From a virus, in IMG/VR virus record IMGVR_UViG_3300035191_000049: 18,800 nucleotides of DNA, one strand, 5' to 3'. The position numbers and the translations under genes are program-made. The notes beneath the pieces are model-generated. The model did not search any database, had not been told where the DNA came from, and saw only the letters and a list, made by a program, of their open reading frames with translations. Within the stretch, counting starts at the first letter, position 1, and every line of letters starts with the position of its first letter. Below are positions 1,128 to 17,047 of this stretch, piece by piece.

Positions 1128-1132
1128 AACAG

Positions 1133-1463: not shown

Positions 1464-1466
1464 ATG

Positions 1467-1963: not shown

Positions 1964-1974
1964 GTCATTCCCCC

Positions 1975-2049: not shown

Positions 2050-2138
2050 AAAAGAGTGGTGAATCACCTTGCTTCCTTCCGGACCTGGGGCAACTCACCA
2101 CCCCACAAAAAGGGGGTCAGCATGGCTGGCGACCATAC

Positions 2139-2543: not shown

Positions 2544-2550
2544 AGGGTAG

Positions 2551-2624: not shown

Positions 2625-2629
2625 ACGAT

Positions 2630-2655
2630 CCGGCGCCCCAGCAAGGGGGCGCCGG
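2630..2655. other. perfect 10-bp GC hairpin (CCGGCGCCCC-AGCAAG-GGGGCGCCGG) between tRNA-Asn and tRNA-Lys
   Basis: Read directly from the sequence. No flanking U-run on either strand, so it is not a classical intrinsic terminator. It may be a processing or structural element within the tRNA transcript. Confidence 0.5.
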
Positions 2656-2721
2656 TAATTGATGCCTGATTGTCAAAGATCAACGTGGCCGTCACCACTG
2701 GACCGACGTTGTCCAATTTAG

Positions 2722-2796
2722 CCGGGGCGAGAGGATTCGAACCTCCGACCAAGTGATTAAGAGTCACCCACTCTAGCCAGACTGAGTTACGCCCCG
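2722..2796 (-). tRNA. tRNA-Lys (anticodon CTT)
   Basis: Acceptor CGGGGCG/CGCCCCG pairs 7/7. U8 is present. D-arm ACTC-AGTCTGGCTA-GAGT. Anticodon stem with a G-U closing pair and loop CTCTTAA. T-arm AGAGG-TTCGAAT-CCTCC. Confidence 0.75.
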
Positions 2797-2809
2797 AAAA
2801 CGTTATTTT

Positions 2810-2881
2810 GTGGGTCCACTGAGATTCGAACTCAGACCGCCTGATTAAAAGTCAGGAGCGCTACCCTTACGCTCATGGACC
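2810..2881 (-). tRNA. tRNA-Lys (anticodon TTT)
   Basis: Acceptor GGGTCCA/TGGACCC pairs 7/7. Anticodon stem CCTGA/TCAGG with loop CTTTTAA, matching the canonical Lys loop. T-arm CTGAG-TTCGAAT-CTCAG, perfect. The D region (GCG...CGC) is less clean. Confidence 0.75.
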
Positions 2882-2904
2882 CTGCTTTCTCCTCCAAAAA
2901 CGTC

Positions 2905-2939
2905 AAAAGCCGCCTCGGTTGACCCGGGGCGGCTTTTTT
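2905..2939. terminator. bidirectional rho-independent terminator (AAAA-GCCGCCTCGG-TTGAC-CCGGGGCGGC-TTTTTT)
   Basis: A 10-bp GC-rich stem (one G-U pair) with a 5-nt loop. A T6 run follows it on the plus strand. On the minus strand TTTTGACGTTTTT follows it. It sits between the 50-aa ORF and tRNA-Lys(TTT). Confidence 0.75.
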
Positions 2940-2959
2940 CGCGTCATATGCGCTTCAGC

Positions 2960-3112
2960 CTACCCCGGGGGACCCTCCTGAAGCGCGACGTTGGTATCAA
3001 TGGCAAATGGCGTACAGGAGGGCCGTTCCAAGCATGACGGGTGATTCAACGACCACCCGCTACGCTTGAGCAGCTCCCTTGTTGTCAGATAGCTTTTGCC
3101 GCCTTTTTCCAT
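2960..3112 (-). CDS. small ORF (50 aa, MEKGGKSYLTTRELLKRSGWSLNHPS...), possible HTH-like regulator, or else the body of an sRNA
   Basis: It lies entirely between the predicted promoter (3165-3192) and the terminator (2905-2939). An AGGA motif precedes the ATG but with only 2 nt of spacing. The LTTRELLKRSGWS segment resembles a helix-turn-helix turn. It is below the 60-aa cutoff of the ORF track. Confidence 0.3.
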   Translation of the reverse strand: MEKGGKSYLTTRELLKRSGWSLNHPSCLERPSCTPFAIDTNVALQEGPPG

Positions 3113-3163
3113 GATCCTGGTTTCTGTTTCGATACTCTCCGGGCCTTTCTCTAGCCCATGTAA

Positions 3164-3175
3164 AGTAGCATATGC
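3164..3175. promoter_or_regulatory. perfect 12-bp palindrome TAGCATATGCTA (copy 1), operator-like
   Basis: The identical 12-mer recurs at 16451-16462, also inside a minus-strand promoter. A chance recurrence of a 12-mer within 18.8 kb is very unlikely. Confidence 0.55.
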
Positions 3176-3192
3176 TATCCACAGAGCGTGTC
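3165..3192 (-). promoter_or_regulatory. sigma70-like promoter on the minus strand: -35 TTGACA (3187-3192), 16-nt spacer, -10 TATGCT (3165-3170)
   Basis: The hexamers were read from the reverse complement. The -10 lies inside the palindrome TAGCATATGCTA (3164-3175). The predicted TSS is near 3157 and would drive the 50-aa ORF/sRNA unit, with possible read-through into the tRNA array. Confidence 0.45.
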
Positions 3193-3225
3193 AACAAGAA
3201 AATGCTTGACAGCCCAAACTTTTTC

Positions 3226-3615
3226 CTATGCGGCCGTTTTCTTTGAGGGTTTTTTCTGACTGTTCAGCAGCTCAACAGTCGCAACGTACTCTCTCTCGAA
3301 GTCCTCAGGACTAAGAACCCAAGCGATCTCCATATCATGCAAGAGATACCCCCCCTCGGGGACATCATGAGCAGCGCAGCCGTCACCCTCTGGGACACCC
3401 AGGAGTCTTAAAGGGATATCCATCTTAAAGGCGCGCACCGACTCTCCCGTTTTCCTGGAGACGTACCAGGACCAGGGCAGCTCTTCAAAAACCATCGGCT
3501 CCTGCCGATAGTTGCGATTTTCCAGCGGAACCGACTCAGGCTCCGTGTACTCTCGACGCCCGTCGTAGACAGTCAAGCCGAAGAGCCTTCTGAATGACAT
3601 TCCAAGCTCGTACAT
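3226..3615 (-). CDS. hypothetical protein (129 aa)
   Basis: ORF-track ORF. Its start lies 1 nt after the stop of the methyltransferase gene. No motif recognised. Confidence 0.5.
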   Translation of the reverse strand: MYELGMSFRRLFGLTVYDGRREYTEPESVPLENRNYRQEPMVFEELPWSWYVSRKTGESVRAFKMDIPLRLLGVPEGDGCAAHDVPEGGYLLHDMEIAWVLSPEDFEREYVATVELLNSQKKPSKKTAA

Positions 3616-3616
3616 A

Positions 3617-4309
3617 TCAGAACCCCGTTTCCATTGCCTCTCGACTCTGCTTCCTAAATCTCACAACAAACTGCAATCCGGCTTTATCGATTGGCTGCCT
3701 GGTGTACGCTTTCAGGTATGTCGAGCATACAAATTCAACTGCCAAGCCAAGCTTCCTTGCCAGCGACACGAAAAACCCCGCGGGGAACCTTGCCCCGTTG
3801 AGTTCCCCGTCTCTCCAGGGATGCATTCCACTGGTTGTGTGCTCACCGTTCAACGACTCGTTGTAAGTAGAGAAGTAAACTCCATTTTCAGCCATACGAC
3901 CAAACACAGCGCCCAGGCATGCTTCAACCTGAGAGGGCGTCATATGCGTCATGACCGAGTGAGACCAGGCGAAGTCAAACCGAATCCCCTCGGGCAACAA
4001 AGAAAGATCAAAATCCGTCGACTGAAAAAGAGTAGCTTTCTTATCAACCAGGCCCTGAAGGACGATCTCTTCGCGAGCTGCAGACAGGACGTGTTCGTTG
4101 TGATCAAGGCCAAAATAGTGTCCAGGCTCCAAGTAGTCGATGAAAAAACGTCCAGCCCGCAGTGCCCCACAGCCCACCTCAAGCATGTAGTGGGAAGGAA
4201 CAAGACCATGAGCTTTGGCAAATTCAAATAGAAGCTCTCCATCCTCCCAGGTTTCACAGCCGTGGATTTCTTTTGTACGCCACCACTTATCGCTCGTCGG
4301 CTTAGTCAT
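3617..4309 (-). CDS. class I SAM-dependent methyltransferase
   Basis: Rossmann motif I YMLEVGCGALRAG followed by an acidic residue. A GAGGGG Shine-Dalgarno site lies about 9 nt upstream. This segment has lower GC (about 50%) than the rest of the window. Confidence 0.65.
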   Translation of the reverse strand: MTKPTSDKWWRTKEIHGCETWEDGELLFEFAKAHGLVPSHYMLEVGCGALRAGRFFIDYLEPGHYFGLDHNEHVLSAAREEIVLQGLVDKKATLFQSTDFDLSLLPEGIRFDFAWSHSVMTHMTPSQVEACLGAVFGRMAENGVYFSTYNESLNGEHTTSGMHPWRDGELNGARFPAGFFVSLARKLGLAVEFVCSTYLKAYTRQPIDKAGLQFVVRFRKQSREAMETGF

Positions 4310-4381
4310 TAACTCAAACCCCTCAGCAACCCAACGCGGTTAGTGCCTGCCAAATGACAAGACTTACCAAAATCCCAATAA

Positions 4382-4618
4382 TCACCGCGAGGATAGACCC
4401 CAATCGTCCCTCACCCCCTCCACCTCTGCCCCGGTACATACCACCCTCGCCACAAAGACCATCACCATCCAGGTAAAAATGATCACTGCTAGCCACAGTA
4501 AAAATCCCAGAGTAGCGCTCCGGACCAACTCCAAAGCACCCTCCTTCTTTCTCTGTTGCATGATGCTCGTGTTTAGCACGTTCATCCTGCAGAAGTCATG
4601 TTCGCTGCGTTTAGCCAA
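4382..4618 (-). CDS. small membrane protein (one TM helix, LGFLLWLAVIIFTWMVMVFVA)
   Basis: ORF-track ORF with a hydrophobic core. The true start may be the internal Met at 4585. Confidence 0.35.
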   Translation of the reverse strand: MAKRSEHDFCRMNVLNTSIMQQRKKEGALELVRSATLGFLLWLAVIIFTWMVMVFVARVVCTGAEVEGVRDDWGLSSR

Positions 4619-5312
4619 CTCTCAGCTTTGCCACACCCCAAGCGTGGTCGTAAATGTGCATCCCCTTGCAACTCCAGATGATTTCACCGGCCGTGACGGT
4701 AACGTCATCAGTACTGATGCACTCGGCCATATACTCCTGCATGAGCCTCACAGCGGCGATATTCGCCGGGAAGCCGTTCCAGAGGTCATTCGACCTGATG
4801 TAGACGAAGAAGTGCAACTCGGGCTCTTCTCCCTCTCGGAGCCCTGATGGGGAGAAAATTCTGGTGTCAATTTGTCGCAGACAGGGCGGGTCATCCAGCG
4901 TTATGTCTTCAGGACGGGCGACAGCAATGCACTCCTGGTTGGAGCCGAAACCGTTTCTGCGGTAGCGGTTGATGATGGCCTCCATCTGGGGAGCCACTCG
5001 CTCGCCATAGGTGTACAGCTCATTTTCCTTGAGAGGCTGGTCTGTCATTAAATAGGGAAGGTACTCCTCTATATATTCCATGGTCGTTGGAGGAGGCACG
5101 TGTGAGAGGTGCTGAGGCATCTCAGGAACGAGGGGGCGCACGCCTGGGTGGGTGACCCGTATCTCCACCCAGTCAAGCTCCCAGCGCTTCTGGCCCTCAT
5201 AGGAACCATGATCAACGACCCACTGTCGCCCATGGGTAAGAACTGCATCGACGGTTTGAAACCAGGCATCGGGCAGGTCCCTGGCTTTGATGTGAATTGG
5301 CTTCAAGGACAT
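4611..5312 (-). CDS. thymidylate synthase-fold enzyme (ThyA/dUMP hydroxymethylase family), divergent
   Basis: Aligns by eye to ThyA core motifs: YTYGERV (compare pVYGkQWR), DDPPCL (catalytic Cys of LAPCH), FVYIRSNDLWNGFPANIAA (compare QLYQRSCDVFLGLPFNIAS, Asn retained), and IIWSCKGMHIYDHAW (compare fVWTGGDTHLYSNH). The ATG at 5312 overlaps the upstream stop as TGATG. Confidence 0.75.
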   Translation of the reverse strand: MSLKPIHIKARDLPDAWFQTVDAVLTHGRQWVVDHGSYEGQKRWELDWVEIRVTHPGVRPLVPEMPQHLSHVPPPTTMEYIEEYLPYLMTDQPLKENELYTYGERVAPQMEAIINRYRRNGFGSNQECIAVARPEDITLDDPPCLRQIDTRIFSPSGLREGEEPELHFFVYIRSNDLWNGFPANIAAVRLMQEYMAECISTDDVTVTAGEIIWSCKGMHIYDHAWGVAKLRVG

Positions 5313-5533
5313 CAACTTTTCTCCTGGGGTCCTACCCCAGCGAGTGGCATCACGTCGATGTACAACCCACGCCAGCCACCTTCAAGCATTTGTCGAACAA
5401 AATAAACGTCCTGAGGATTACCTATCCATACAAAAACCTTCTTGCCGCCGTAAGCCACTCGGACGTCCTTTATCCCATGCACCTTGGTGAGGTGCCCATA
5501 CACAGCTTCAACGATCCCGTCGAAGCGCCTCAT
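5312..5533 (-). CDS. hypothetical protein (73 aa)
   Basis: ORF-track ORF. It is coupled by ATGA and TGATG overlaps to both neighbouring genes. Confidence 0.45.
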   Translation of the reverse strand: MRRFDGIVEAVYGHLTKVHGIKDVRVAYGGKKVFVWIGNPQDVYFVRQMLEGGWRGLYIDVMPLAGVGPQEKS

Positions 5534-6171
5534 GCTTCAGAAACAATGTTTCCTTCGCTGAGCTTCATCACCAGATCGTACTCCGACAGGTCGTCAGGAG
5601 ACGCAATCGCCACTCCATCGCCAACTCGGACGATCGGTATCCACGAAGCACAGCAACCACAGACGATCCGGAGCTGGTCACGGTCGTCACCCTCGAAGTT
5701 GTCGTCCTTTAGACGGGCGAACGTAATGTTTCCAGAGAATCTCGGGTTGTCGTCGTTTCCACCCATTGCGTCGCCACAGACAGGACATGGGCTGTCGAGA
5801 ATGCCGTTTTTAATGAGGTCCGCGATCATCTCCCAGGCCCGACGATCCACGACTAGGTTTGTCGCGAAGAGTGTGTGAGAGTGGAGCCTGTGAGCCTCCT
5901 CGATGGTCATTACATCTGTGGAGAGCGGGGCAAGCTTTGCGAGCTGTTTATGCAACCAACAATGCTGCCCCAGCGCAAGGTCCAACTCACCAACCAAGCG
6001 ATAGGACATGCTTCTTTCACTGAGCTTTTGAAAACAATCAGCGCAGAAACCGATAGGCCTCTCATGATCCGCATAGACGACAGTGACTCTCTCCCAAGGA
6101 GGCTCTTTTTCGCAATCTCGCTGCAAACCACACCCAAGGCAACGCTCCAATATTCGGACAACTTTCGGCAT
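5530..6171 (-). CDS. Cys-rich (Zn-ribbon-like) hypothetical protein
   Basis: Multiple CxxC pairs (CLGCG, CADC, CPVCGD, CGCC). A strong AGGAGG Shine-Dalgarno site precedes it. Confidence 0.55.
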   Translation of the reverse strand: MPKVVRILERCLGCGLQRDCEKEPPWERVTVVYADHERPIGFCADCFQKLSERSMSYRLVGELDLALGQHCWLHKQLAKLAPLSTDVMTIEEAHRLHSHTLFATNLVVDRRAWEMIADLIKNGILDSPCPVCGDAMGGNDDNPRFSGNITFARLKDDNFEGDDRDQLRIVCGCCASWIPIVRVGDGVAIASPDDLSEYDLVMKLSEGNIVSEA

Positions 6172-6681
6172 CTAATCCTCCTGCTCGATCACCTGAGGAG
6201 CAGGAGGAAGAAGAGCCGTCGCGCTGTTGTTCAGGATCTCCGGGAGTCGAGGACCGATGGCCTCGGCGACGGTACGTCCATCGCTACCGACGAGCCATGG
6301 CAGGAAGAGCTGCTCGGGCGTGATGATGCCGTTCTCGATGGCCTCGAAGGCGCCCTTGAGAAAAATGCTCAGCACGCGGTGCTCTCGCCATCCTCGGGAC
6401 GCCTTGAGACGCTTGAACTTGTCCGGGAGCAAGGTCCCGTGCCGCCTGTGCTTGGCCTCCTCCTTGAGCTTTTCGTCATCAGGTAGGGCGACGTTCATGC
6501 GCGCGTGGTAGCTGACACCTTCATGCTGCCAGACGAACTCCAGCATAACCCTGTAGTTCTCGAAATTTTCCGACCACCGAATCCCGGTTACGCCCCACAA
6601 ACGGAGCAGGTCGGTGATTTCCTCCCTGGACTCACCTGGCGGGACTACCGTGTTCTCGGCATACTTCCTCTTCTTGGGCAT
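6172..6681 (-). CDS. hypothetical protein (169 aa), basic N-terminus
   Basis: ORF-track ORF with a GGAG Shine-Dalgarno site 6 nt upstream. It overlaps the 3' end of the radical SAM gene by about 50 nt. Confidence 0.5.
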   Translation of the reverse strand: MPKKRKYAENTVVPPGESREEITDLLRLWGVTGIRWSENFENYRVMLEFVWQHEGVSYHARMNVALPDDEKLKEEAKHRRHGTLLPDKFKRLKASRGWREHRVLSIFLKGAFEAIENGIITPEQLFLPWLVGSDGRTVAEAIGPRLPEILNNSATALLPPAPQVIEQED

Positions 6682-7420
6682 CTTTCTCTCCGATTGCTTT
6701 GAGATGAAGGGGGCTCAGGTTCGAGTTGAGCCCACAACGGTTGCACTTCATGGTTTTGAGATTGCGCTCAATGGTCAGGACGTCATCGTGGACAGTCCCG
6801 ATTGAGTGGCAGGTGTCGGCCTCGCCAGTAACGATGGTGCCGTCGACGTTGACAGCCGGGCTGCAATGTTTCCCCATCTGCTCGATCGCCCTGATGCCAC
6901 CAGCAAGGCCACCAGTGCTCCTCGTCGCGCTTCTCAGATTGAAGCACGTAGGACTGATACGGGTGGGCTTGATACGATTCTCTTTCGTCCTGCGACAGGG
7001 AAAAATAACGCGGAGGTTCGACTCGAAGCTGACTCCAGGGATACGTCGAAACTTTTCCCTGGCGAGGATCTTCGGATAGTAGCGCGGATCGTTCGTCACC
7101 TGGATGGGCAGCTCCAACTCGCGAGCGAGCTTCACTTTCTCCGGATCATCGATCCATGAGCCGTTCGTTGTGATGAGCGTGGCCTGGTGATAGACGTGAA
7201 ACTTGTCGAGTCGCCTCAAATGGCCTGCCATCTCTTCGAGCTTCGGATGCTCGAAGGGCTCTCCTCCGGTGAGTAGAATGACCTTGGCGGCGACACTCTG
7301 AGCAAAATCGACAGCGGCCTTAAACGTCTCCATAGTCATGTGCTCGCCATCTGGACCTGAGGAATCGACCATGCAGTGCTTGCACCCCATGGTGCAGCAA
7401 TTCGTGACACGGATCAGCAT
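6632..7420 (-). CDS. radical SAM enzyme, QueE/NrdG/PflA-like (paralog 1)
   Basis: N-terminal CTMGCKHC (Cx3Cx2C) and LTGGEPFEHP (GGEP SAM-binding motif). C-terminal extra Cys pairs, ending in CNRCGL. A GAGGGGG Shine-Dalgarno site is present. Parallel in sequence to the gene at 10111-10929. Confidence 0.75.
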   Translation of the reverse strand: MLIRVTNCCTMGCKHCMVDSSGPDGEHMTMETFKAAVDFAQSVAAKVILLTGGEPFEHPKLEEMAGHLRRLDKFHVYHQATLITTNGSWIDDPEKVKLARELELPIQVTNDPRYYPKILAREKFRRIPGVSFESNLRVIFPCRRTKENRIKPTRISPTCFNLRSATRSTGGLAGGIRAIEQMGKHCSPAVNVDGTIVTGEADTCHSIGTVHDDVLTIERNLKTMKCNRCGLNSNLSPLHLKAIGEKDAQEEEVCREHGSPAR

Positions 7421-8715
7421 TGCTCGACCCCCTCAGTAGGCTCCTCTTCTTCAGGAGGTAGTAGCGCTTTCCAGCGGTCTTCCTTGAATCGATGATCGGT
7501 GGCGTAAGGGATGTAACGCACCAGGCCTGCATCGATAAGCCTTTGAAGAATGCCGTTCATGTACTTTACGGCCTCGTTGTGATCGTCGGGCAGTGAGCCT
7601 ATCCGGTTGAGGATCGAGTAGATGTCGTAGTCGCGCCACATGCGCTTTCCGCCCAAATCCCTGAGCATGAGGCCGTGCAACTCTTTCATGAGGGGGGTAA
7701 GCGGCTGCTGTTCGAAGGTGGCGTCCCTGTGAATAAAGGTTGGGTACTGACAGTTGTTGATTTCGACGCAGACCGGGCACTCGTCTGCTGCCTCCCGGAT
7801 ATCCTCATCCGTCATCGATATCATCCTGTGACTGTCACGTGCCGCGAACAGGAGCTGGTTGAGCGTCCAGGGAAGGAGCTTTCCTTCTTCGTCTTTGTTC
7901 GTGAGGAGCAGCTCGCCGATCGTCTTGGCGAGAGCCTCCTTTTTGCCTGGCTCCTTCTCCTCGGGACCCCCCACCTCGATGTCCATTTCTTCCAATCCGT
8001 TGTCTGCCACGCAGTAGACGTGGTCAGAGGTGTTTCCGAGACGGCTCTTGACGACTACTTCAACAGACATAAGAGCCTCAAGCTGCTGCTCGACGAGTTC
8101 GATATCGATCTCTGGGTGTACCTCTTTGAGCCCGTGCTCGATCTCCTCCGCGGACCAAACCGCGCTCATGCCGTCCTTCTTGGTCCCTGCCTTGACCATG
8201 AGCTTGACGATGTTGACGGCAATCGGAGGCCACGTAGCCTCCGGAATATTGACGGACAGCTCTGGCTCGTTTTCGCCGTCATTAGACGAGTGGCAGCAAT
8301 TCTCATCCTCACCGATCGCGGCCACATCATTATCCGGCTCGGGCTTCTGTTCAGGTTTCTGGAACGGCCGCATGTGCATGTCGGGCTGCTCGAACTTCTT
8401 GTCTTCGTTAACGATTGCGTCGCGAAGATCGCAGGTCAGGCGAAATGCTTCTTCAGCGACCCATGTCGCCTCCTCCCCCATTTCTTCGTTCTTTGTCATC
8501 TGGACGTTCAGCGACCAGCCCGAGATGAGCTTGGCGACCATCATGAGGATGCGAGAATTCTCTTCGACGCGAGCCACCTCTTTCGCAGCGTTGACGATGT
8601 CCGAGACACTGCCCTCGGTAGAACGAAGATACTTCTTTCGCACCCTTCCAAGCTCCTCAGCGGCCTCCTTCATCTCTGCGATCAAGTTTCTGATTTTGGG
8701 TTCGTCGGACATCAT
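7414..8715 (-). CDS. hypothetical acidic protein (433 aa)
   Basis: ORF-track ORF with balanced composition. The antisense plus-strand ORF 7675..8901 is Leu/Arg-rich and was judged spurious. A GGGGTGA Shine-Dalgarno site is present. Confidence 0.55.
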   Translation of the reverse strand: MMSDEPKIRNLIAEMKEAAEELGRVRKKYLRSTEGSVSDIVNAAKEVARVEENSRILMMVAKLISGWSLNVQMTKNEEMGEEATWVAEEAFRLTCDLRDAIVNEDKKFEQPDMHMRPFQKPEQKPEPDNDVAAIGEDENCCHSSNDGENEPELSVNIPEATWPPIAVNIVKLMVKAGTKKDGMSAVWSAEEIEHGLKEVHPEIDIELVEQQLEALMSVEVVVKSRLGNTSDHVYCVADNGLEEMDIEVGGPEEKEPGKKEALAKTIGELLLTNKDEEGKLLPWTLNQLLFAARDSHRMISMTDEDIREAADECPVCVEINNCQYPTFIHRDATFEQQPLTPLMKELHGLMLRDLGGKRMWRDYDIYSILNRIGSLPDDHNEAVKYMNGILQRLIDAGLVRYIPYATDHRFKEDRWKALLPPEEEEPTEGVEQC

Positions 8716-9137
8716 TCACCCCGCTTGAGAGAAAAACCTTTCAGGACACCCACGTCATCGCCAGCGGCCTCACAGGTGACCTCTGTGACCTGGATCGAGC
8801 CGAGCAGCCATCGTCCTGGCATCCGAATCATGTGCCTCAGCGCGTCCAGCTTCTTGTTGAGAAATTCCTTCAGTGATCCGCCGACATCCTCCTGGGAGTA
8901 GCGAGCCACCTCTTCTTTATCTTGCCACCAGCCGGGGTCAGGCTCGTGGCCAGGGAGCTGCCAAACGTTCTCGTCTGGACGGAAGGCCAGACTGAAGAAA
9001 GCGTCGGGGTACATTTCCAACAGCTTGTGCGTTGGAGGTCCCCACTCTTTGTCGTCCTCAGGATGTTCTTCTTTGTAGACCTCAAGAAGAGGACGAATCT
9101 TTCCGCCTCGCCGAATACGCAAAAAGCCTGGCATCAT
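8712..9137 (-). CDS. hypothetical protein (141 aa)
   Basis: ORF 8712..9266 trimmed to the internal MMPGF start (9137). A GAGGA Shine-Dalgarno site lies 5 nt upstream. This avoids a 94-nt overlap with the upstream gene. Confidence 0.5.
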   Translation of the reverse strand: MMPGFLRIRRGGKIRPLLEVYKEEHPEDDKEWGPPTHKLLEMYPDAFFSLAFRPDENVWQLPGHEPDPGWWQDKEEVARYSQEDVGGSLKEFLNKKLDALRHMIRMPGRWLLGSIQVTEVTCEAAGDDVGVLKGFSLKRGE

Positions 9138-9171
9138 GTATTCCTCGGGAATCACAGCAACGACGAGAGCG

Positions 9172-9717
9172 TCACCCACTTGCGCCTCCCTGTGCCCACC
9201 GTTCGAAGTCGACCTCTCGCATGTGACCGCTCTTCTTAAAGATGGGAAAAAGACCCATGGGTCCATCGGGCGGAAACATCTCGGCGTCCTTGCCCATGAC
9301 GGGCTCGAAGTTGCAGCCCTGAAGGATCAGGGCCACAAACTCAGAACAGGAGACCTTGTTGTGATTGATGATGGGGTTGAACCACTCGACTCCCGTCACC
9401 TTGTAGAGCGCAAGGAGGATGCCGTTCAGGATGACGGCCTTGAAATCGTATTTCTTGTTAACGTAGTTACGCGCCTTTCGCATCCCCTCCTCGATATCCA
9501 GTCCGACGACCTCGAAGCACATCCAGTCGTCGTAGTTTTTTTTGAGAAGCTCGACTCGCTGGGGAATGACGCCGTCGGAAATAGCATGGGTGACCCACTG
9601 GCCTCCCCACACCGGATCCGTGTAACCCACCCAGGCGTGGTTCCAGTTACCTCCCGTCGCCTTGCGAATGAGCCAACCGAGAAAGTTGTTCGACCTGCTG
9701 AATCCAACGACAATCAT
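9172..9717 (-). CDS. permuted papain-fold enzyme (LRAT-like / NlpC-P60 superfamily), thiol hydrolase or acyltransferase
   Basis: A His-containing segment (NWNHAWVGY) lies N-terminal to a Cys box (SCSEFV, compare LRAT NCEHF). That is the permuted order. The start at 9717 forms an ATGA overlap with the SLOG gene's stop. Confidence 0.5.
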   Translation of the reverse strand: MIVVGFSRSNNFLGWLIRKATGGNWNHAWVGYTDPVWGGQWVTHAISDGVIPQRVELLKKNYDDWMCFEVVGLDIEEGMRKARNYVNKKYDFKAVILNGILLALYKVTGVEWFNPIINHNKVSCSEFVALILQGCNFEPVMGKDAEMFPPDGPMGLFPIFKKSGHMREVDFERWAQGGASG

Positions 9718-10190
9718 CTCAGCCTCTTGAAGATTTCCATGCACCGGAACTTTGCTGTCTCCTGAGCACCTGGAAATCCACTCTCACGGGGGCCGGCGAC
9801 GTTGATGACCTCAAAGTTGGTTAGCAGCGAGGCAAGGTGGTCGTAGCCATCGCTCTCGTTGGGAAACATGTGCAGCTCGTTGATGATGTCGAACCAGGGC
9901 TTTTCCAGTTTGCGGCACAAGCGCACCGTGAGAGCTGTTCCCGTCGAATCAGGGATGCTGGGACAGAGGATGAGAGTCGCGTCCGAGTCCCGGACGTTCC
10001 ACTCCGTGCGCTGAGGATAGTTCGACGTCGGCGCCTCCTGGAGCCTGCGGTATTTCTGGGGGATCTTGCCGTCCTCAGCTCGACGTCCCAGGGGACACCA
10101 GCCCCCTATCTCAATGCCCAGCTTCAGCGCCGCATCGAGACCACCTCGATCGACCCCTGTCTGACCGCCTGATATGACTTTTTTCAACAT
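9714..10190 (-). CDS. SLOG-superfamily protein ('putative molybdenum-carrier'/YpsA-like)
   Basis: The N-terminus ISGGQTGVDRGGLDAALKLGIEIGGWCPLGRRAEDG matches the signature start of the MoCo-carrier-like SLOG family. Downstream TEWNVRDSDATLIL follows. Confidence 0.6.
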   Translation of the reverse strand: MLKKVISGGQTGVDRGGLDAALKLGIEIGGWCPLGRRAEDGKIPQKYRRLQEAPTSNYPQRTEWNVRDSDATLILCPSIPDSTGTALTVRLCRKLEKPWFDIINELHMFPNESDGYDHLASLLTNFEVINVAGPRESGFPGAQETAKFRCMEIFKRLR

Positions 10191-10929
10191 CCTTCAACCC
10201 GCACTTTCCGCAGGGGAGTATTGTTCGTATTCTCTCCATCGCCGCCCTTGACGCCGATTTCCAGTCGGCGCGCAGCTCATCGATCGTCGTCACCTTCATG
10301 CAGCAATCAAGCGGCCCCATTCGGACCTCTCCCCCGGGATGCACGTGAATGCTGCACGTTCCGTCCAACGCTTCCCACATGCGAACGAACGACCGGAAGT
10401 TTGCATCGCCTGCTCCGCGCTTCAATAGTCTGTTCGCGTGCACGCAGTAGCGATTCTTTTCTCTGATTTTCGTTCCAGGAGGAGGTTTCCAGCCGCGCCT
10501 TTTCGCCTTCTCTCCGACGTATATTGAACTTAGATAGCTGATAACCTTCACGTTCTTCAACGCTCGCAGCTCATCAACGAAGTCGAGCTGCGGATAGAAC
10601 CGAAAGTCAGCGGTCACCTGGAATGCGACAGGCGCCAAGGACTTGATCTCTGCGAGGCGCCCTCTGAGCAGGGCGCCACTCGTCCCGACCCTCACGATAA
10701 AACCATGCTCCAGCGCAGCGTCACGAAGGGTCTTCACGACTTCCCAAAAAAGCGGATGTTCGAGCGGCTCGCCACCAGCTATGCCCAGGTCGTTCGAGCC
10801 GATCTTTTTGAAGACGCGAAGCGTTTCTTCGAGCGTCTCCTTGCTCATGTGCTCGGCACCGGGACCGGTCTTCGACACCAGGCAGTGATCACAATCGAGG
10901 GAGCACCGATATGTGAGCATGATGACCAT
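10111..10929 (-). CDS. radical SAM enzyme, QueE/NrdG/PflA-like (paralog 2)
   Basis: CSLDCDHC (Cx3Cx2C) and IAGGEPLEHP. C-terminal Cys pairs, ending in CGKCGL. Same architecture as the gene at 6632-7420. Confidence 0.75.
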   Translation of the reverse strand: MVIMLTYRCSLDCDHCLVSKTGPGAEHMSKETLEETLRVFKKIGSNDLGIAGGEPLEHPLFWEVVKTLRDAALEHGFIVRVGTSGALLRGRLAEIKSLAPVAFQVTADFRFYPQLDFVDELRALKNVKVISYLSSIYVGEKAKRRGWKPPPGTKIREKNRYCVHANRLLKRGAGDANFRSFVRMWEALDGTCSIHVHPGGEVRMGPLDCCMKVTTIDELRADWKSASRAAMERIRTILPCGKCGLKDVEKSHIRRSDRGRSRWSRCGAEAGH

Positions 10930-10935
10930 AAGCCA

Positions 10936-11268
10936 TCAACGACCCTTCTTAGTCTTTGTATTCGACTTGCCACCAGGCCATCGGTCGGCCTTCCCTCGTC
11001 CGACGTGAAAGCTCTCGCCATCCTTCGCGGCGTGCTTCACAAACTGAGCGAGTTCTGGGTCTTTTTCGAGTAACCTCATGTACTGACGCGCCGCTTCATC
11101 AATAGCCGCGTCAGCGCCATTCAATCCCGTGTAGCCATTCTGTAATGCGGCCACCCCTTCATGCGGCGAGCACCCCGGTGCTTTAATCCGGACATCGTAC
11201 TCGTCGACCAATCCCGCGTGCCCCCCCGTCACCGTCAGACGAACCTCCCCACTGAACCTCTTCGGCAT
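10936..11268 (-). CDS. hypothetical protein (110 aa)
   Basis: ORF-track ORF. No family recognised. The GLVDEYD segment is only vaguely dUTPase-like. Confidence 0.45.
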   Translation of the reverse strand: MPKRFSGEVRLTVTGGHAGLVDEYDVRIKAPGCSPHEGVAALQNGYTGLNGADAAIDEAARQYMRLLEKDPELAQFVKHAAKDGESFHVGRGKADRWPGGKSNTKTKKGR

Positions 11269-11681
11269 TACTTTTCCCTCCGAACCCTTCCTTGCTTGAT
11301 CGCTGACCGAAAAAGCCCTTCTACATGCTTTCCCAGATCGATCTGGCTCACCCCCAGCACAGTGTTTGTCATGGCCGCGGTGGTTATCTCATCGATGAAT
11401 TCAGGGTCGATGTCCCAGCCCTCATCGTTGACGCACAGCTCGTCCCCCTCGAAGTAGAACTCCGGGATGTCATCGGCAGTGTGGTCAAATTGAAGTTCAA
11501 GGCCGCTGTCGGGACCGGTCCCGTTTGCGTTGACCACCAAGGGGTCAATCGCTTGCGGCATGTGCTTCTGGATCTCTTCCATCTGCTCGATTATTTCCAA
11601 AGCGCGCCCGACAGCCCCCTGTCGTAGCGACGCCTTCACCTTCTCCAGCTCTGCCCAGAAATCGACGTCTTCCTGTTTCAT
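11268..11681 (-). CDS. hypothetical acidic protein
   Basis: ORF 11268..11705 trimmed to the Met at 11681, which overlaps the upstream stop by 1 nt. Confidence 0.45.
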   Translation of the reverse strand: MKQEDVDFWAELEKVKASLRQGAVGRALEIIEQMEEIQKHMPQAIDPLVVNANGTGPDSGLELQFDHTADDIPEFYFEGDELCVNDEGWDIDPEFIDEITTAAMTNTVLGVSQIDLGKHVEGLFRSAIKQGRVRREK

Positions 11682-12100
11682 CAATCCAACCCTGCCACCT
11701 GACACGACAGCTCGTCGAGCTGCTTCTGCATGTCATCGACGCGATCCTCCAGCTCCGTCACCCTCGCCGCCAAGCTTTTGGCGAAGCGCTCGGTGTGCTT
11801 CACGCAGAGAGCGGTAAACTTCCCGCCGTCAACGATTATGCTGTTCTCATCGACGAATCCTGGCTGCACCCCCTCGACTTCCTGATTGAACACAGACGTC
11901 GCGAAGTTCCAGCAGCCGTCGACATCGCAGGTACACGGGATTGCCTCTACGCCGCGCATGTTCTTGAGCTTGTGACGATCGCGATACTGCTTGCGCGCCT
12001 CAGCTTTCTCGTAACGTCCGGCTGGGAAAAATAGATTGGACATCCCCTTCTTCCACACTCGCCAGTAGATGTGCGGCTGTCCGTTTTTATCAACACCCAT
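11681..12100 (-). CDS. hypothetical protein with C-terminal coiled-coil
   Basis: ORF 11681..12256 trimmed to the internal Met (MGVDKNGQPHIYW...). The N-terminal extension is Ser/Thr-rich, low-complexity, and overlaps the upstream gene. Confidence 0.45.
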   Translation of the reverse strand: MGVDKNGQPHIYWRVWKKGMSNLFFPAGRYEKAEARKQYRDRHKLKNMRGVEAIPCTCDVDGCWNFATSVFNQEVEGVQPGFVDENSIIVDGGKFTALCVKHTERFAKSLAARVTELEDRVDDMQKQLDELSCQVAGLD

Positions 12101-12488
12101 TTCTCTTCTCCCGGTCCAGGTAGTAACCCATGGGGTGACCATGAACCTCCTTAAAACGCTCTTTCGAGATTTCGTGACGCCGCATGAGGCACTCGTCGCA
12201 GATGGGCTCGTACTTGTAGAGCATGTCCCCGTCGTCAGCCCAGTCGATGTAACCATGCCACAGCACCCACGAGCGCTCTGCGGCCGTCGCGCGACAGAGG
12301 GCGCACTGCATACCGACCATACCCTTCAGGCCATGTAGCTTTCTGACGTCGCCACAGCCCCTACAGGTCATGAGTCTGGGGTTGACCCACTTCTTCTCGT
12401 GAATGCACTTCTCGCAGCCCTCGACCATGCACTCGAAGCAACCCCCGACCTCGACGTTCTCAGCGCCACATGCTCTACACTTCGGCAT
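12090..12488 (-). CDS. Cys-rich Zn-finger protein (132 aa)
   Basis: Five CxxC pairs (CRACG, CFEC, CEKC, CRGCG, CDEC). Confidence 0.5.
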   Translation of the reverse strand: MPKCRACGAENVEVGGCFECMVEGCEKCIHEKKWVNPRLMTCRGCGDVRKLHGLKGMVGMQCALCRATAAERSWVLWHGYIDWADDGDMLYKYEPICDECLMRRHEISKERFKEVHGHPMGYYLDREKRNGC

Positions 12489-13532
12489 CTATAGACGCCT
12501 CATCTCGAACTGGAGCGAACGGATCTTTTGGAGCAGCCCATCAACGCCCTGGAATATTTTCCTAACGCGATCCCTTGTCGTCTTTGGCCAGTTGTCCTTG
12601 TCATCGATACTGCCGAGCACTTTATTGGCCTCAAATTCCAGCTCGTCAACGGCTTGGACGGCATCAAACACATCGAACATTTTTTTCTTCTCGGGCACGA
12701 CGGACATGACGACCACATCTTTGGGAATGCTGTAGATCGGGCCACGAAGGATGTAGGCAACCTTCATCCTCAGGACGTTCCCAGTGTATCCCTGGTCAGG
12801 AGGACCAAAGTAGGTCTCGTCAGCCGTTACACCGGCACCTGTCGTCCCTGGGTTCCACTCCTTCAGAACGAGAATGTCGCCCTTCTCGAAGTCACGATCG
12901 TTCTTGCGAACGTCGAAGGTCTTCTCACCCGACTTCATTGCGCGGAATTCGGCTGGCCACGTCTTCAACTCGTGCTCGACGGGCTCACGCTTTTCATGTC
13001 GGCGCCTGAACATCTCCAGCGTCTTGTCAGGAGCACCTACTAAAACATTTCGATCGCCCACTGGATAGACACGTTCTGGATCCGCGCCCATCAGCTCCAC
13101 CGTCTCCTCGACGGAGATTGAGTCGGGCACTGGATCGCTAAACGGAGGCGACGCAGGATAGTCACCGCCGAGCCGCTCCATGAAGCCTACATCCAGCGGG
13201 GCGTCATCACCTTCTTCTTCATGCTTCAAGAGAGCGTCGATCTCTTCCTTCTGTCGCTGCTTCTCGGCCTCGTAGTCGCGGTCCCACTGGGCCAGTTGCT
13301 CTTTCGTGGCAGGCATGTGCTCGCCAGGCTTTCGACAAGCCTCTGGGTCATCGACAAGATGCGGCTCTTGACACCAACCGGAATTCTTTTCTCGCTCGAC
13401 TAGCCCCTTAAAAACAGGGCATTCAGACGTTTCCTTGGTCACTTCTATCGATTCATATTTGCAGCCGTGGACGGGGCAGCAGTGTGTAATGTGGACCCCC
13501 CAGCCCTCCGGTAGTTCTTCTTCGGACATCAT
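12489..13532 (-). CDS. ASCH/DUF3850 (PUA-like) domain protein with Cys/His-rich N-terminus
   Basis: The C-terminal KTWPAEFRAMKSGEKTFDVRKNDRDFEKGDILVLKEW...GYTGNVLRMKVAYI matches the DUF3850/ASCH signature. The N-terminus HCCPVHGC...ECPVFKG is a metal-binding cluster. Confidence 0.6.
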   Translation of the reverse strand: MMSEEELPEGWGVHITHCCPVHGCKYESIEVTKETSECPVFKGLVEREKNSGWCQEPHLVDDPEACRKPGEHMPATKEQLAQWDRDYEAEKQRQKEEIDALLKHEEEGDDAPLDVGFMERLGGDYPASPPFSDPVPDSISVEETVELMGADPERVYPVGDRNVLVGAPDKTLEMFRRRHEKREPVEHELKTWPAEFRAMKSGEKTFDVRKNDRDFEKGDILVLKEWNPGTTGAGVTADETYFGPPDQGYTGNVLRMKVAYILRGPIYSIPKDVVVMSVVPEKKKMFDVFDAVQAVDELEFEANKVLGSIDDKDNWPKTTRDRVRKIFQGVDGLLQKIRSLQFEMRRL

Positions 13533-14137
13533 TCTTCTCCGGGTAAAAAATCCTCTTTTCTGAAGATGGACCAGAGCTGCAGCCCGTTCTCACGGAGCAG
13601 CTCCTCTCCGCCTTCCTGACGGTCGACGACGGCGAGGACGCCCACGACGTTGAGATTCTCCTCGCGAAGCGTCTCGACCGCCTTGAGCGACGAGCCACCG
13701 GACGTGACGACGTCCTCGATGGCAAGGACGCGGCAATCGTTCGAGACCATCCGCTCTCCGTCGAGATCGTAGAGACCCTCGACAGACTGCTTGCGCCCGT
13801 GGCCCTTCTTGTCCAGACGAGGTATGAGCCATGGGATCTTCTTCGCGAAGGGTCCGCCGACGCCCATCAGTCGCGCAACGAGCAGGAGACCTCCCAGCGG
13901 CACAGGAGCGAGCGCCCAGTTCACCCCCGACGGTGTGACGCAGTCCAGGCCGAAGTGGAGAGCGCCCCCGAGGTGCTCACCCACCGAGGGGTGGCAGGCA
14001 GCCAGACGGCAGTCGACGTAGAACTTACTTTTTCGCCCCGAGGCGAGCGTCAGCTCCCTCTCCGTCGAGACCGCGTTGTTCAGCATCGCGTCCTTCAGAC
14101 GCCTCCAAACACGGATCTTCATGATCTCTTCGCGCAT
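13529..14137 (-). CDS. type I phosphoribosyltransferase, orotate-PRTase (PyrE) family
   Basis: LASGRKSKFYVDCR (compare PyrE LKSGRKSPYFF). The PRPP motif VLAIEDVVTSGGS. VVDRQEGG (compare PyrE LDRQERG). The start is ambiguous between 14086, 14137 and 14164. Confidence 0.7.
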   Translation of the reverse strand: MREEIMKIRVWRRLKDAMLNNAVSTERELTLASGRKSKFYVDCRLAACHPSVGEHLGGALHFGLDCVTPSGVNWALAPVPLGGLLLVARLMGVGGPFAKKIPWLIPRLDKKGHGRKQSVEGLYDLDGERMVSNDCRVLAIEDVVTSGGSSLKAVETLREENLNVVGVLAVVDRQEGGEELLRENGLQLWSIFRKEDFLPGEE

Positions 14138-14453
14138 CGACTCCGGGGTCTCCATCGTGCTCATATCTCTCCTCGTCTAGCATCGCGTCGAGCATCTCGG
14201 CCTCGGCGTCCACCGCCTTGCGAGAGCTGCTGTCCGCGAGCTTCTTCCTGATCCCCCTGGCAATCGTCGCCGGGTTGCCGCCCATGTTGAAATGAAACCC
14301 ACTCGCACCCCATGAGACGTAAAGGCGCAGGCCGGGGATGAGACGGATCGAGGTCCCGATCCGTGGGTTCAGCATTCTTGCTGCCGCCTTGGTCGTCTTG
14401 GAGACAATTTTTTTATTGAGTGGCTTACTAGCTAGGGACTTCTGGGATGGCAT
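14025..14453 (-). CDS. possible hypothetical protein overlapping the PRTase 5' end
   Basis: The N-terminal 80 aa have a protein-like frame. The C-terminus is charged and low-complexity. It overlaps the PRTase start by at least 60 nt. The call is uncertain. Confidence 0.2.
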   Translation of the reverse strand: MPSQKSLASKPLNKKIVSKTTKAAARMLNPRIGTSIRLIPGLRLYVSWGASGFHFNMGGNPATIARGIRKKLADSSSRKAVDAEAEMLDAMLDEERYEHDGDPGVDARRDHEDPCLEASEGRDAEQRGLDGEGADARLGAKK

Positions 14454-15531
14454 TATAAAACTCCCCTCCCAGCATCTTCCCGGTTTTTTTCTTACCAAGA
14501 AGATACATCTCTTCGAGATGGGGACCCTTTCCGTTCTTGCGCCCAGGATAAACATCAGGTTCCCACTGGCCATCTGATGTCAATGAACCGAACCGAGACG
14601 TGACGATGTCCGGCCCATAAAAACCACGAGACTTGACAATGTGGCCGTACTCGGAGCCGGCGATCCAGGCACCCCACTGTTTGAAGAAAAAACTGACGTG
14701 CGACTTCTCGCACTGCTCTTTGATGTCGTGGACCCACCGGGGGTGCATGGGACGAGCACCAGGGCCACTCTCTCCGCCCACGATCACCCACTGGATGCCG
14801 CGGTCACGAGCTGCCCAATACTTGAAGTCGTCCCACTCTCCCGGATTGGCGATTGGGTATGTAGCGTCCTCTTCTACCTCGCCGATCCCTGGCATCCGTA
14901 GCTTGACCGGCCCGAGCAGCGGTTCGAGGGAGAGGAATCGAATTCGAGCCGGCACCCTGAGCAGGTGGGGGATGCGCAGGTCGGCTGCTTCCTGATTTTC
15001 GACGGAGACGCCGCACCAGATGTGAGGAGGGAGCCACGCCTTTCTGACACGAGCATCGCGCTCTTCGATCTCGTCGAGCCCAACACAGATCTCGACAGGA
15101 CCCTTGGGCTCGTAGGGCGTGACCCATTTCTGAACGTACTTCGCCATGCGCTCGGGGCGCTTGGTCAGGATGAGATAGACGTGATGGTCGGCCTCGAACA
15201 TCATTTCGAAGACCTTGTCGATCCACTCGTCTGGCACCGATTGATGGAACAGGTCGCCCATCAGGCAGATAGCGATGCGGCGAGAGCGGGTCCACCGATT
15301 CGGCTTCTCCAGCTCCTTCTCGAAGAGCTTGGCCTGACCGGTCCAATTGCCGTCTTTAGTCAGCCCGTGAAAGTGCTCTCCAGGCTTCGAAAAACGCGCT
15401 GCCTGACGTTCGGCCCAGCAGTTATCACAACCGCCGAGGTTGTTGTAGAATTCCTCCTCGTCTTCGTGTGAACAGCCCTTCACAGGGTTGAGCGTCGCGT
15501 CGACGTATTCTATTTTTGTCCGATCGCCCAT
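14428..15531 (-). CDS. phage Gp37/Gp68 family protein (DUF5131), three-Cys motif
   Basis: The N-terminus DRTKIEYVDATLNPVKGC...GGCDNCWAE matches the family signature (tkIeWt..wNp..GC...GCdnCYA). The start is set at the Met that overlaps the upstream stop as TGATG. Confidence 0.6.
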   Translation of the reverse strand: MGDRTKIEYVDATLNPVKGCSHEDEEEFYNNLGGCDNCWAERQAARFSKPGEHFHGLTKDGNWTGQAKLFEKELEKPNRWTRSRRIAICLMGDLFHQSVPDEWIDKVFEMMFEADHHVYLILTKRPERMAKYVQKWVTPYEPKGPVEICVGLDEIEERDARVRKAWLPPHIWCGVSVENQEAADLRIPHLLRVPARIRFLSLEPLLGPVKLRMPGIGEVEEDATYPIANPGEWDDFKYWAARDRGIQWVIVGGESGPGARPMHPRWVHDIKEQCEKSHVSFFFKQWGAWIAGSEYGHIVKSRGFYGPDIVTSRFGSLTSDGQWEPDVYPGRKNGKGPHLEEMYLLGKKKTGKMLGGEFYNAIPEVPS

Positions 15532-16070
15532 CAGGCTGCGTTCTTCTTCCTGGGCCAGAGCTTGTCCTTTGCCCACCGCACCAAACCGCCATGCTCCGGG
15601 GCGTAGGCTTCCATTTCCCCAGAAAGACGGTTCTTATGCATCAGAAAGCACCAGTTCGACCCGCTTTTTCCGATGGCATTACCCTTTAGGAGAAGGAATG
15701 TCTCGTGGACGAGTCCCTCCTTCACTACCTCCGCCCTCTGGACAGAAAGGATTGGAAGGGGGCACTGGTCGAAAAGGCGTTCCCGGCCAACGCCAGGGAA
15801 TACCTCGACGATGCCAGGCTTGCGGATGTAGGCGGTGCCCTCAAATCCATCTTCGAGAACAAACTCATACTGACCCGGACGTACCTTGGGCAGCTTCACG
15901 TGGTCGCCGCTATAGTCGATGCGTTTGGCCAGATAGAGAGCCTCAAAGACGTCGTCGGCGAAGCACACGACTGAACGATAGCGATCAAACGCCCTAAACA
16001 CTGAGACCATATCAGCAACACTGACCCTCATCTCAGGCAGAGGGTGCCTTCCGTCGTCAATGGTGACCAT
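15531..16070 (-). CDS. hypothetical protein (179 aa)
   Basis: ORF-track ORF. A GGAG Shine-Dalgarno site lies 7 nt upstream. Confidence 0.5.
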   Translation of the reverse strand: MVTIDDGRHPLPEMRVSVADMVSVFRAFDRYRSVVCFADDVFEALYLAKRIDYSGDHVKLPKVRPGQYEFVLEDGFEGTAYIRKPGIVEVFPGVGRERLFDQCPLPILSVQRAEVVKEGLVHETFLLLKGNAIGKSGSNWCFLMHKNRLSGEMEAYAPEHGGLVRWAKDKLWPRKKNAA

Positions 16071-16073
16071 CGC

Positions 16074-16202
16074 TCATCTCCATAACGCGTGAGACGGTGG
16101 CTCAGGCAAGCAACTGTAGAGAACCCAAGTAACAAGCGACACGATGAGCACCCAGAGAAAGACGTATAAGACGACTCGCTTTGCGAACCCATTGCCCCAC
16201 AT
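16074..16202 (-). CDS. small single-TM protein (42 aa, MWGNGFAKRVVLYVFLWVLIVSLVTWVLYSC...)
   Basis: Found by hand, below the ORF-track cutoff. The ATG overlaps the upstream TAA as TAATG. The stop lies 3 nt before the next gene's ATG. It fills an otherwise gene-free gap and has a clear hydrophobic helix. Confidence 0.4.
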   Translation of the reverse strand: MWGNGFAKRVVLYVFLWVLIVSLVTWVLYSCLPEPPSHALWR

Positions 16203-16438
16203 TACCCACCCGAAACCACCTGTGGCGATTCCGCCTCCACTGCCTTGTAGGCCTCAAGCAAATCGTTCATAGCGTGTGCGAGCTGCCCCCGTTGCATCGA
16301 CAGAAACGCCTTTTCCTCCTCGCTCAGATTCGTGCCGAGCGCTTGATCGATAGACTGGATGCCCATCTGAAGCTCACTGATCTTGCCTTGTGCGACCGCC
16401 AATAGTAGGCGCAATTGTGCAGGTGTCATGGTAGTCAT
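16202..16438 (-). CDS. hypothetical protein (78 aa)
   Basis: ORF-track ORF. First gene after the predicted promoter at 16445-16472. The ATG lies only about 6 nt from the -10, so the mRNA may be leaderless. Confidence 0.45.
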   Translation of the reverse strand: MTTMTPAQLRLLLAVAQGKISELQMGIQSIDQALGTNLSEEEKAFLSMQRGQLAHAMNDLLEAYKAVEAESPQVVSGG

Positions 16439-16444
16439 AATATA

Positions 16445-16472
16445 GCATATGCTACCTTGGTCAACTTAAAAG
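16445..16472 (-). promoter_or_regulatory. sigma70-like promoter on the minus strand: -35 TTGACC (16467-16472), 16-nt spacer, -10 TATTAT (16445-16450)
   Basis: Read from the reverse complement. The spacer contains the palindrome TAGCATATGCTA (16451-16462). This is the likely promoter of the long minus-strand operon that extends down toward 3226. Confidence 0.5.
16451..16462. promoter_or_regulatory. perfect 12-bp palindrome TAGCATATGCTA (copy 2), operator-like
   Basis: Identical to the copy at 3164-3175. Confidence 0.55.
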
Positions 16473-16493
16473 TTTGATGGCCCCAAAGGATGG

Positions 16494-16985
16494 TCAGATG
16501 CCGTGTTTCCGGATCGAATCCACCATCCTCGTGACGGGCACCCACAGCGCCCGGTCGGCAAGGTAGAATGTGTCAGTGATACACCTCACGCGATCGTACT
16601 GCTCTCGCGTCGTCCACTTCGAATAAGTCTTGTCGCTCAGGCATATTATTTTACCGGTGATGGTACTCACGCAGATATAGCCGCGAGGCTTTGGATCTTT
16701 AACTTCCCAGCTCGACACAGTGTCCACCAAAATATTTCTATAAGGAAAATCCTGAGGACATGTAAATGGAAGTCTGCGGCTTTTTACCTCGAAATACCTT
16801 CCGGACAAGAGAAGATCCGGTCTATTGGCAAAGGTCTTTATCTCGCTGATATTATTTCGAAACGCCAACTCAGGAAGCACCGCCTCAAAACCATTCGCTC
16901 CAAAATAATCAGCGACATATTGCTGCCAGCGGTATCCTTCGAGCAGCTCTTTTTTGAACAGCTCGTCGTTTTCAATCCAGCTCAA
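16494..16985 (-). CDS. PD-(D/E)xK nuclease-fold-like protein, TTG start, in a low-GC island
   Basis: RPDLLLSGRYFEVKS carries a D...E-x-K arrangement. The in-frame upstream region is closed by a TAA, so the only start is the TTG at 16985. GC is about 42% over roughly 16640-16990, against about 60% in flanking genes. Confidence 0.4.
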   Translation of the reverse strand: MSWIENDELFKKELLEGYRWQQYVADYFGANGFEAVLPELAFRNNISEIKTFANRPDLLLSGRYFEVKSRRLPFTCPQDFPYRNILVDTVSSWEVKDPKPRGYICVSTITGKIICLSDKTYSKWTTREQYDRVRCITDTFYLADRALWVPVTRMVDSIRKHGI

Positions 16986-17047
16986 AAATTCGCCCCAACG
17001 GACGATAATAACCTCTTAACACCGAGGATGAACAGAGAATATATTCT

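Follow-up and report, generated by a model that had tools for sequence, protein, structure and literature searches.

The repeated palindrome and its predicted promoters

The window analysed here (the whole stretch of 18,800 nucleotides from IMG/VR record IMGVR_UViG_3300035191_000049) is part of the genome of an uncultured phage of 56% G+C and carries every one of its genes on the minus strand. Within it we found two exact copies of a perfect 12-bp palindrome, TAGCATATGCTA, each inside a predicted promoter: P1, ahead of a short transcript and an array of tRNA and transfer-messenger RNA (tmRNA) genes, and P2, ahead of a long block of genes. On the strength of their symmetry, promoter siting and conservation, these copies are probably operators for a symmetric regulator that would occlude RNA polymerase at both promoters. 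The main features are as follows, with conservation given for diverged relatives, which were short Logan contigs only (L204, L205 and L209).

3166 to 3177, no strand: palindrome copy 1 (O1), an exact match to TAGCATATGCTA, covering roughly -17 to -6 in predicted promoter P1; 12 of 12 bases in L209
16443 to 16454, no strand: palindrome copy 2 (O2), an exact match to TAGCATATGCTA, covering roughly -24 to -13 in predicted promoter P2; 12 of 12 bases in L204 and 11 of 12 in L205
3167 to 3194, minus strand: predicted promoter P1, with TTGACA (3194-3189), a 16-nt spacer and TATGCT (3172-3167); the -10 lies within the palindrome
16437 to 16464, minus strand: predicted promoter P2, with TTGACC (16464-16459), a 16-nt spacer and TATTAT (16442-16437)
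3226 to 16438, minus strand: co-directional gene block after P2, about 26 genes in 13.2 kb with gaps of at most about 70 nt

Both palindrome copies are intergenic, copy 1 in the gap at 3113-3225 and copy 2 in the gap at 16439-16493, while the gene tables assign about 3% of the window's protein-coding part to intergenic gaps in all. A sequence-only reading of this DNA had already reported an identical 12-bp palindrome occurring twice, which holds, and had placed the copies at 3164-3175 and 16451-16462, which is off by 2 and 8 nt. Its statement that a repeated 12-mer is very improbable in 18.8 kb was wrong as worded, as 75 canonical 12-mers are present more than once in the window compared with about 33 in random sequence of equal composition. 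A repeated 12-mer that is also palindromic was observed in none of 200 Markov simulations, with about 5 palindromic 12-mers expected per window, and we estimate the chance of such a repeat at about 0.003; perfect symmetry of a given 12-mer has 1 chance in 4096. With the palindromic repeat, the intergenic siting and the promoter overlap taken together, the pair is far beyond chance.

The search for near matches that the sequence-only reading had proposed returned, within the window, the two exact copies and no third copy with two or fewer mismatches. Matches with three mismatches numbered two, which is the chance level, and the half-site TAGCAT was not enriched in the window. The symmetry stops at 12 bp, with asymmetric flanks at both copies. 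Single-stranded, the palindrome can pair into no more than a 4-bp stem (-1.2 to -1.3 kcal/mol, z of about 0) with no T tract after it, and this weak stem rules out a hairpin element, whether a terminator or an RNA or DNA stem-loop.

The promoter strings of the sequence-only reading, TTGACA-N16-TATGCT (3194 to 3167) and TTGACC-N16-TATTAT (16464 to 16437) on the minus strand, were both correct, as was its placement of the palindrome within the promoter core. At P1 the palindrome covers the -10, and at P2 it fills 12 of the 16 spacer bases and directly adjoins the -10. A promoter scan of the minus (coding) strand found sigma-70 matches of at least 10 of 12 only at P1 and P2, each spanning a palindrome; with the palindrome fixed and the flanks random, a match of this quality spanning it has P = 0.0026 per site. 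The palindrome centres fall at about -11.5 (P1) and about -18.5 (P2), inside the core promoter. The gap from the -35 hexamer to the start of the palindrome is 4 nt at P2 and 11 nt at P1, a register difference of 7 bp, and the palindrome is therefore not a fixed-register promoter element. This register shift, together with the lack of hairpin potential, favours a trans-acting symmetric protein.

At both promoters an ATG stands exactly 8 nt past the last -10 base (3151-3159 and 16427-16429), and this arrangement is kept in relatives. The ATG of P1 opens a two-codon mini reading frame, ATG GGC TAG. P2 is followed by ATG codons at 16438 and 16429, neither with a Shine-Dalgarno sequence, and the one at 16429 is that which lies 8 nt after the -10. 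The JGI gene caller likewise starts the first P2 gene at the 16429 ATG, giving 75 amino acids (aa), and the P2 mRNA may be leaderless from this codon. We also observed an inverted repeat, TGTCAA-N11-TTGACA (3189-3211), that takes in the -35 of P1 and is identical in L209; it is a possible second protein site.

Conservation in diverged relatives

The same phage was found on metagenome contigs of 61.6 kb (JGI sample 3300042731), 113 kb and 183 kb, the two longer ones carrying a 433-aa and a 169-aa protein of this phage. Its other contigs are 99.99-100% identical and thus uninformative for conservation. Protein and DNA pattern searches of IMG/VR, JGI metagenome contigs and GTDB genomes returned no close relatives. 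The small protein encoded after P2 has relatives at 77-81% identity, to which a cluster look-up added one contig. L204 and L209 share one sample (SRR8389946), SRR17165181 also contains relatives, and a further contig, L211, stops short of site 2. Comparison with these contigs outlined a conserved footprint at each site.

3141 to 3217, minus strand: site-1 conserved footprint, 77 nt, holding TGTCAA-N11-TTGACA, the palindrome and the first ~20 nt past the predicted start
16430 to 16474, minus strand: site-2 conserved footprint, 45 nt, AACTTTTAAGTTGACCAAGGTAGCATATGCTATATTATGACTACC (AACTTTT..ACTACC)

The site-2 block differs at 1 of 45 positions in L204 and at 3 of 45 in L205, compared with 38% of third codon positions in the adjacent gene, and divergence over the ~19 nt that precede the 45-nt block looks nearly as high. 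The P2 promoter in L204 and L205 is identical apart from one base inside the palindrome, where the L205 copy reads TTGCATATGCTA (11 of 12), this being one of its three changes. At site 1, the 77-nt block carries three changes relative to L209, while the neighbouring genes are about 80-82% identical (18-20% divergence); the -35, the -10 and the palindrome are unchanged, and two of the three changes fall in spacer bases outside the palindrome. As L204 and L209 come from one sample and each has 12 of 12 bases, both copies remain the same 12-mer in the diverged lineage.

Units downstream of P1 and P2

P1 sits immediately after the gene block headed by P2 and is followed by these features.

2960 to 3112, minus strand: 50-aa open reading frame (ORF), coding status doubtful, uncalled by the JGI and Logan gene callers
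2898 to 3070, minus strand: 173-nt block with one change relative to L209, starting inside the 50-aa ORF and running through the terminator hairpin
2896 to 2939, minus strand: intrinsic-terminator-like hairpin, a strong G+C-rich stem then a T tract, read from the sequence and present in folds
322 to 2882, minus strand: tRNA/tmRNA array that follows the P1 unit, with 10 tRNA genes, the tmRNA and another three tRNA-like genes of class II

The predicted P1 transcript of about 265 nt holds the doubtful 50-aa ORF, which L209 retains apart from a 3-nt indel that leaves the frame intact, and ends at the hairpin and T tract. The 173-nt block is predicted to form four hairpins (fold z of -3.49; 0 of 200 shuffles fold as well), and divergence from L209 around it is about 18-20%. 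No Rfam family was found for the block, Rfam gave no match at either palindrome site or in the P1 transcript, and searches of IMG/VR and GTDB genomes gave no match to the first hairpin of the block (20 nt). We regard the block as a candidate small structured RNA that P1 would drive. The terminator-like hairpin ends 13 nt ahead of tRNA-Lys and splits the P1 unit from the tRNAs, which would thus be reached by read-through or processing. The sequence-only reading had P1 controlling a small ORF and tRNA unit and P2 the long modification operon; both promoters do face co-directional genes, but the hairpin parts the small unit from the tRNAs.

Within the array, three tandem tRNA-like genes with long arms lie on the minus strand at 951-1036, 1039-1127 and 1134-1217. 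They were missed by ARAGORN and by the Rfam gathering threshold, and gave sub-threshold tRNA-Sec matches with E values of 6e-7 to 4e-4. The tmRNA (537-900, minus strand) encodes the tag peptide VNTDNYHEAPLARAA. Outside the window, the contig of this phage from sample 3300042731 was observed to carry Ro60-like vWA, RNA-ligase-like and cREC_REC proteins and an HNH endonuclease near the tRNA/tmRNA array, a set that hints at an RNA repair or quality-control module.

The block after P2 encodes a 75/78-aa helical hairpin protein, DUF5131 and DUF3850 proteins, two radical SAM proteins, cpYpsA, a thymidylate-synthase-like protein and a methyltransferase. In the window as a whole, the dense run of nucleotide and DNA-modification genes beyond the tRNA/tmRNA array also includes a thymidylate kinase and methyltransferases. 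The nearest DUF5131 relative is only 47% identical, and the 433-aa protein had no homologue besides itself among 5.8 billion sequences. Similarity to GenBank phages across the window was limited to 36 nt at the tmRNA 3' end (Xanthomonas phages BUDD and X1). L209 is without the 230-aa methyltransferase gene and the thymidylate-synthase-like gene (window positions 3626-4346 and 4624-5463), so the content of the modification cassette differs between close lineages. L204 is without the region of a 42-aa ORF (about 16078-16272).

A 163-aa ORF at 16494-16985, about 40 nt upstream of copy 2, encodes a restriction-endonuclease-like protein with a PD...EVK motif. Its gene is present in L204 and absent in L205 (1171-1260), where a DUF7694 gene directly precedes P2. 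Two short repeats that resemble each other, TCATCCT (17031-17025) and CCATCCT (16493-16487), flank the insertion (16494-17047), which begins with another perfect 12-bp palindrome, AGAATATATTCT, at 17036-17047.

A proposed shared operator

As the palindromes lie in the only two strong promoter matches and are kept in relatives, it is most likely that one dimeric regulator binds them. In the mechanism that we propose, a single symmetric DNA-binding protein, probably a homodimer, would recognise the TAGCATATGCTA duplexes and act as the regulator, and its gene would lie in another part of the phage genome or in the host. P1 and P2 would be sigma-70-type promoters read by the host RNA polymerase, and protein bound at either site would block the polymerase, so that both units would be switched together. 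The units under this putative joint control would be the ~13-kb DNA-modification operon (P2) and the ~265-nt, highly conserved transcript ahead of the tRNA/tmRNA array (P1).

Several observations weigh against this interpretation. No DNA-binding family match was found among the window proteins scanned with Pfam and PHROGs, which covered most ORFs including those adjoining both sites. The first gene after P2 was considered as the source of the binding protein and rejected, its 75/78-aa product being predicted as a two-helix hairpin (predicted local distance difference test score, pLDDT, of 89.6) and not as a helix-turn-helix or ribbon-helix-helix fold; the protein had only generic structural neighbours. 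The 50-aa ORF at 2960-3112, which the sequence-only reading had named as a candidate binder, fared no better: gene callers do not call it, it had no Pfam or PHROG match, and its AlphaFold2 fold was of low confidence (pLDDT of 58.7), while its database matches were weak, repeat-like and in long proteins. The promoter blocks are conserved in their entirety, and the palindrome is not singled out within them, so conservation alone cannot separate the palindrome from the promoter, and one relative (L205) carries its substitution inside the palindrome. Its right half, TATGCTA, is standard promoter grammar (TRTG-n-TA) and very common in phage promoters, and part of the conservation is consequently promoter function. 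The count of two copies covers about 22 kb read of a phage genome of at least 183 kb, and the starts of P1 and P2, near 3160 and 16430, are predicted from sequence.

Upstream of the thymidylate kinase gene, the JGI gene table lists over 10 kb several genes of 73-130 aa, a divergent gene of 130 aa and long gaps (500-770 nt). The earlier suggestion of a dimeric repressor operator stands as regards symmetry, promoter siting and conservation; no binding protein was found in the proteins scanned, and repression is what we infer. Promoter firing, protein binding, the repressive sign and the origin of the regulator are all of this kind, and with binding, repression and regulator so placed the operator interpretation is only partly supported. 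We consider it plausible and the best available.

Alternative explanations

It is rather unlikely that the palindrome is a cis promoter module only, with TATGCTA serving as a -16/extended -10 or as the -10, no protein involved besides RNA polymerase, and the left symmetry incidental. In an IMG/VR scan for TTGAC-N3-12-palindrome we observed a strong excess at the 8-nt gap. A control scan of IMG/VR for TTGAC-N11-CATATGCTAT, in which counts are lower bounds over the matches listed, found this combination (a TRTG -16 region plus -10) to be a very common phage promoter form. The triplet before CATATG was TAG in 2 of about 120 stretches among the matches listed, the chance rate, and ordinary phage promoters that share the right half do not, again among the matches listed, conserve the left one. 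The 8-nt excess is mostly promoter grammar, which speaks for a promoter module. Site 2 offers a near-perfect extended -10 in TATG-C-TATATT (P2 has an alternative overlapping extended -10, TGC-TATATT, at 16447-16439), and at site 1 TATGCT would act as the -10, the extended -10 reading fitting poorly there (TACTTT, 3 of 6). In the extended -10 register the -35 hexamers are 14 and 21 nt away and would be non-functional, yet both are conserved and lie exactly 16 nt from the alternative -10s. The left half TAGCA, identical at both sites and kept in relatives, is unaccounted for by a promoter module, and so is the perfect symmetry. Promoter grammar leaves the symmetric left half and the variable register in this phage unexplained.

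In favour of an operator, the palindrome was also observed in the promoters of an unrelated phage, IMGVR_UViG_3300021256_000160 (L022; also L026 and L070). Fifteen promoters of the form TTGAC-N8-TAnCATATGnTA-taat occur there within 7.6 kb (1-7700), each heading a small gene of unknown function, and four of the fifteen carry exactly TAGCATATGCTA. Positions 3 and 10 are free and the conservation is symmetric, indicating that the dyad is a selected unit in L022 too. Early genes of L022 gave no matches to DNA-binding domains, and no window proteins were common to the palindrome-carrying phages.

We regard as improbable a second alternative, that the site binds an activator, be it a spacer-binding MerR-like protein, a dual regulator or a global factor of the host that the phage makes use of. 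The same protein-binding evidence that speaks for an operator would speak for an activator. The usual position for an activator is at the -35 or farther upstream, whereas the sites here are centred inside the core promoter. MerR-type promoters have 19-20-nt spacers with a centred dyad, while P1 and P2 have spacers of 16 nt and an off-centre dyad. A scan of bacterial genomes for the 12-mer with GTTGAC upstream and YWTTA downstream returned only two unrelated matches, both in Firmicutes metagenome-assembled genomes, which argues against an activator or host factor.

The chances are slim that the palindrome instead serves a symmetric enzyme that acts on DNA. The adjacent 163-aa PD...EVK protein, an HNH endonuclease and a DNA methyltransferase would be candidates, as would a site-specific recombinase working at the two ends of the 13-kb cassette of modification genes. 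Palindromes are the typical targets of homodimeric nucleases and methyltransferases, the 163-aa ORF is a presence/absence insertion close to copy 2, and the two copies bracket a modification block whose content differs in L209. Carriers of the nuclease gene keep a perfect site and the one genome without it has a mutated site, which is the reverse of homing logic. No recombinase was found in the window, half-sites of 6 bp are short for recombination, and a DNA enzyme would leave unexplained the precise embedding of the palindrome in two promoter consensus matches. Finally, chance recurrence without function is very remote: generic repeats of 12-mers are common at this window size, but no simulation gave a palindromic one, and both copies are intergenic, lie inside the only two strong promoter matches and are kept in relatives.

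If the operator interpretation is true, it offers a first regulatory handle on an uncultured, lineage-isolated phage, in which a single factor would govern both a large DNA-hypermodification operon and the unit leading into the tRNA/tmRNA array. P1, P2 and the 12-mer offer compact parts that can be tested in reporter assays and used to fish for the regulator. The operator-in-promoter layout itself is standard, and the understanding of phage regulation would be unchanged. A wider and more speculative proposal, which we hold to be doubtful, is that TAnCATATGnTA may be the operator of an undescribed regulator family in unrelated phages (this phage and the low-G+C L022 phage), here coupling the timing of the hypermodification operon to a highly conserved small structured RNA ahead of the tRNA array.

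Comparison with known systems

Occurrences of the 12-mer in the literature were limited to the EBNA1 site core and unrelated oligonucleotides. EBNA1 site probes of Epstein-Barr virus contain the same 12-mer as their core, e.g. GGGTAGCATATGCTA (PMC2853575). Epstein-Barr virus is a eukaryotic virus with its own DNA-binding protein, and the identity is a coincidence, with nothing to suggest homology.

Lambdoid CI/Cro-type operators are dyad sites within the -35/-10 region of phage promoters and exclude RNA polymerase. They are 14-17 bp long, tandem and beside the repressor gene, whereas the 12-bp sites of this phage stand singly, 13 kb from each other, and no repressor gene was found near them. 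The stoperators of mycobacteriophage L5 and the conserved inverted repeats of phiC31 represent a short repressor site recurring intergenically across a phage genome. Stoperators are asymmetric and orientation-dependent, with dozens per genome. We rejected a mycobacteriophage-type stoperator (an asymmetric 13-14-bp site in many copies and one orientation) for the element described here, which is symmetric and present in two copies in about 22 kb.

Extended -10 and -16 promoters (TRTG-n-TATAAT) match the right half of the palindrome, with at least about 100 distinct IMG/VR phage promoters carrying CATATGCTAT at the equivalent position among the matches listed. The extended -10 element is asymmetric and of fixed register, in contrast to the symmetric element here with its register shift of 7 bp. 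The L022 phage shares the TAnCATATGnTA promoter motif with this one, including exact TAGCATATGCTA, and differs in its low G+C content, its Firmicutes-type ribosome-binding sites, the lack of any shared protein and a fixed register in which the -10 is overlapped by 2 nt.

KorA of plasmid RP4 is a 101-aa dimer with a perfectly symmetric 12-bp operator at seven promoters (PMC2665229). It is a small helix-turn-helix homodimer that represses its promoters as a set, with imperfect copies of the operator bound more weakly (PMC2665229). The KorA operators (OA) of IncP-1 RK2/RP4 have the consensus GTTTAGCTAAAC and belong to a plasmid, while the site here is in a phage, with two copies in the ~22 kb read. 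We rejected the site as a KorA OA operator because its sequence differs from that consensus and no KorA-like protein was matched in the window. The likeness lies in the recurrence, at several promoters on a single replicon, of a 12-bp site with perfect symmetry, and by this analogy KorA of RP4 would be the closest mechanistic precedent for the proposed operators at P1 and P2.

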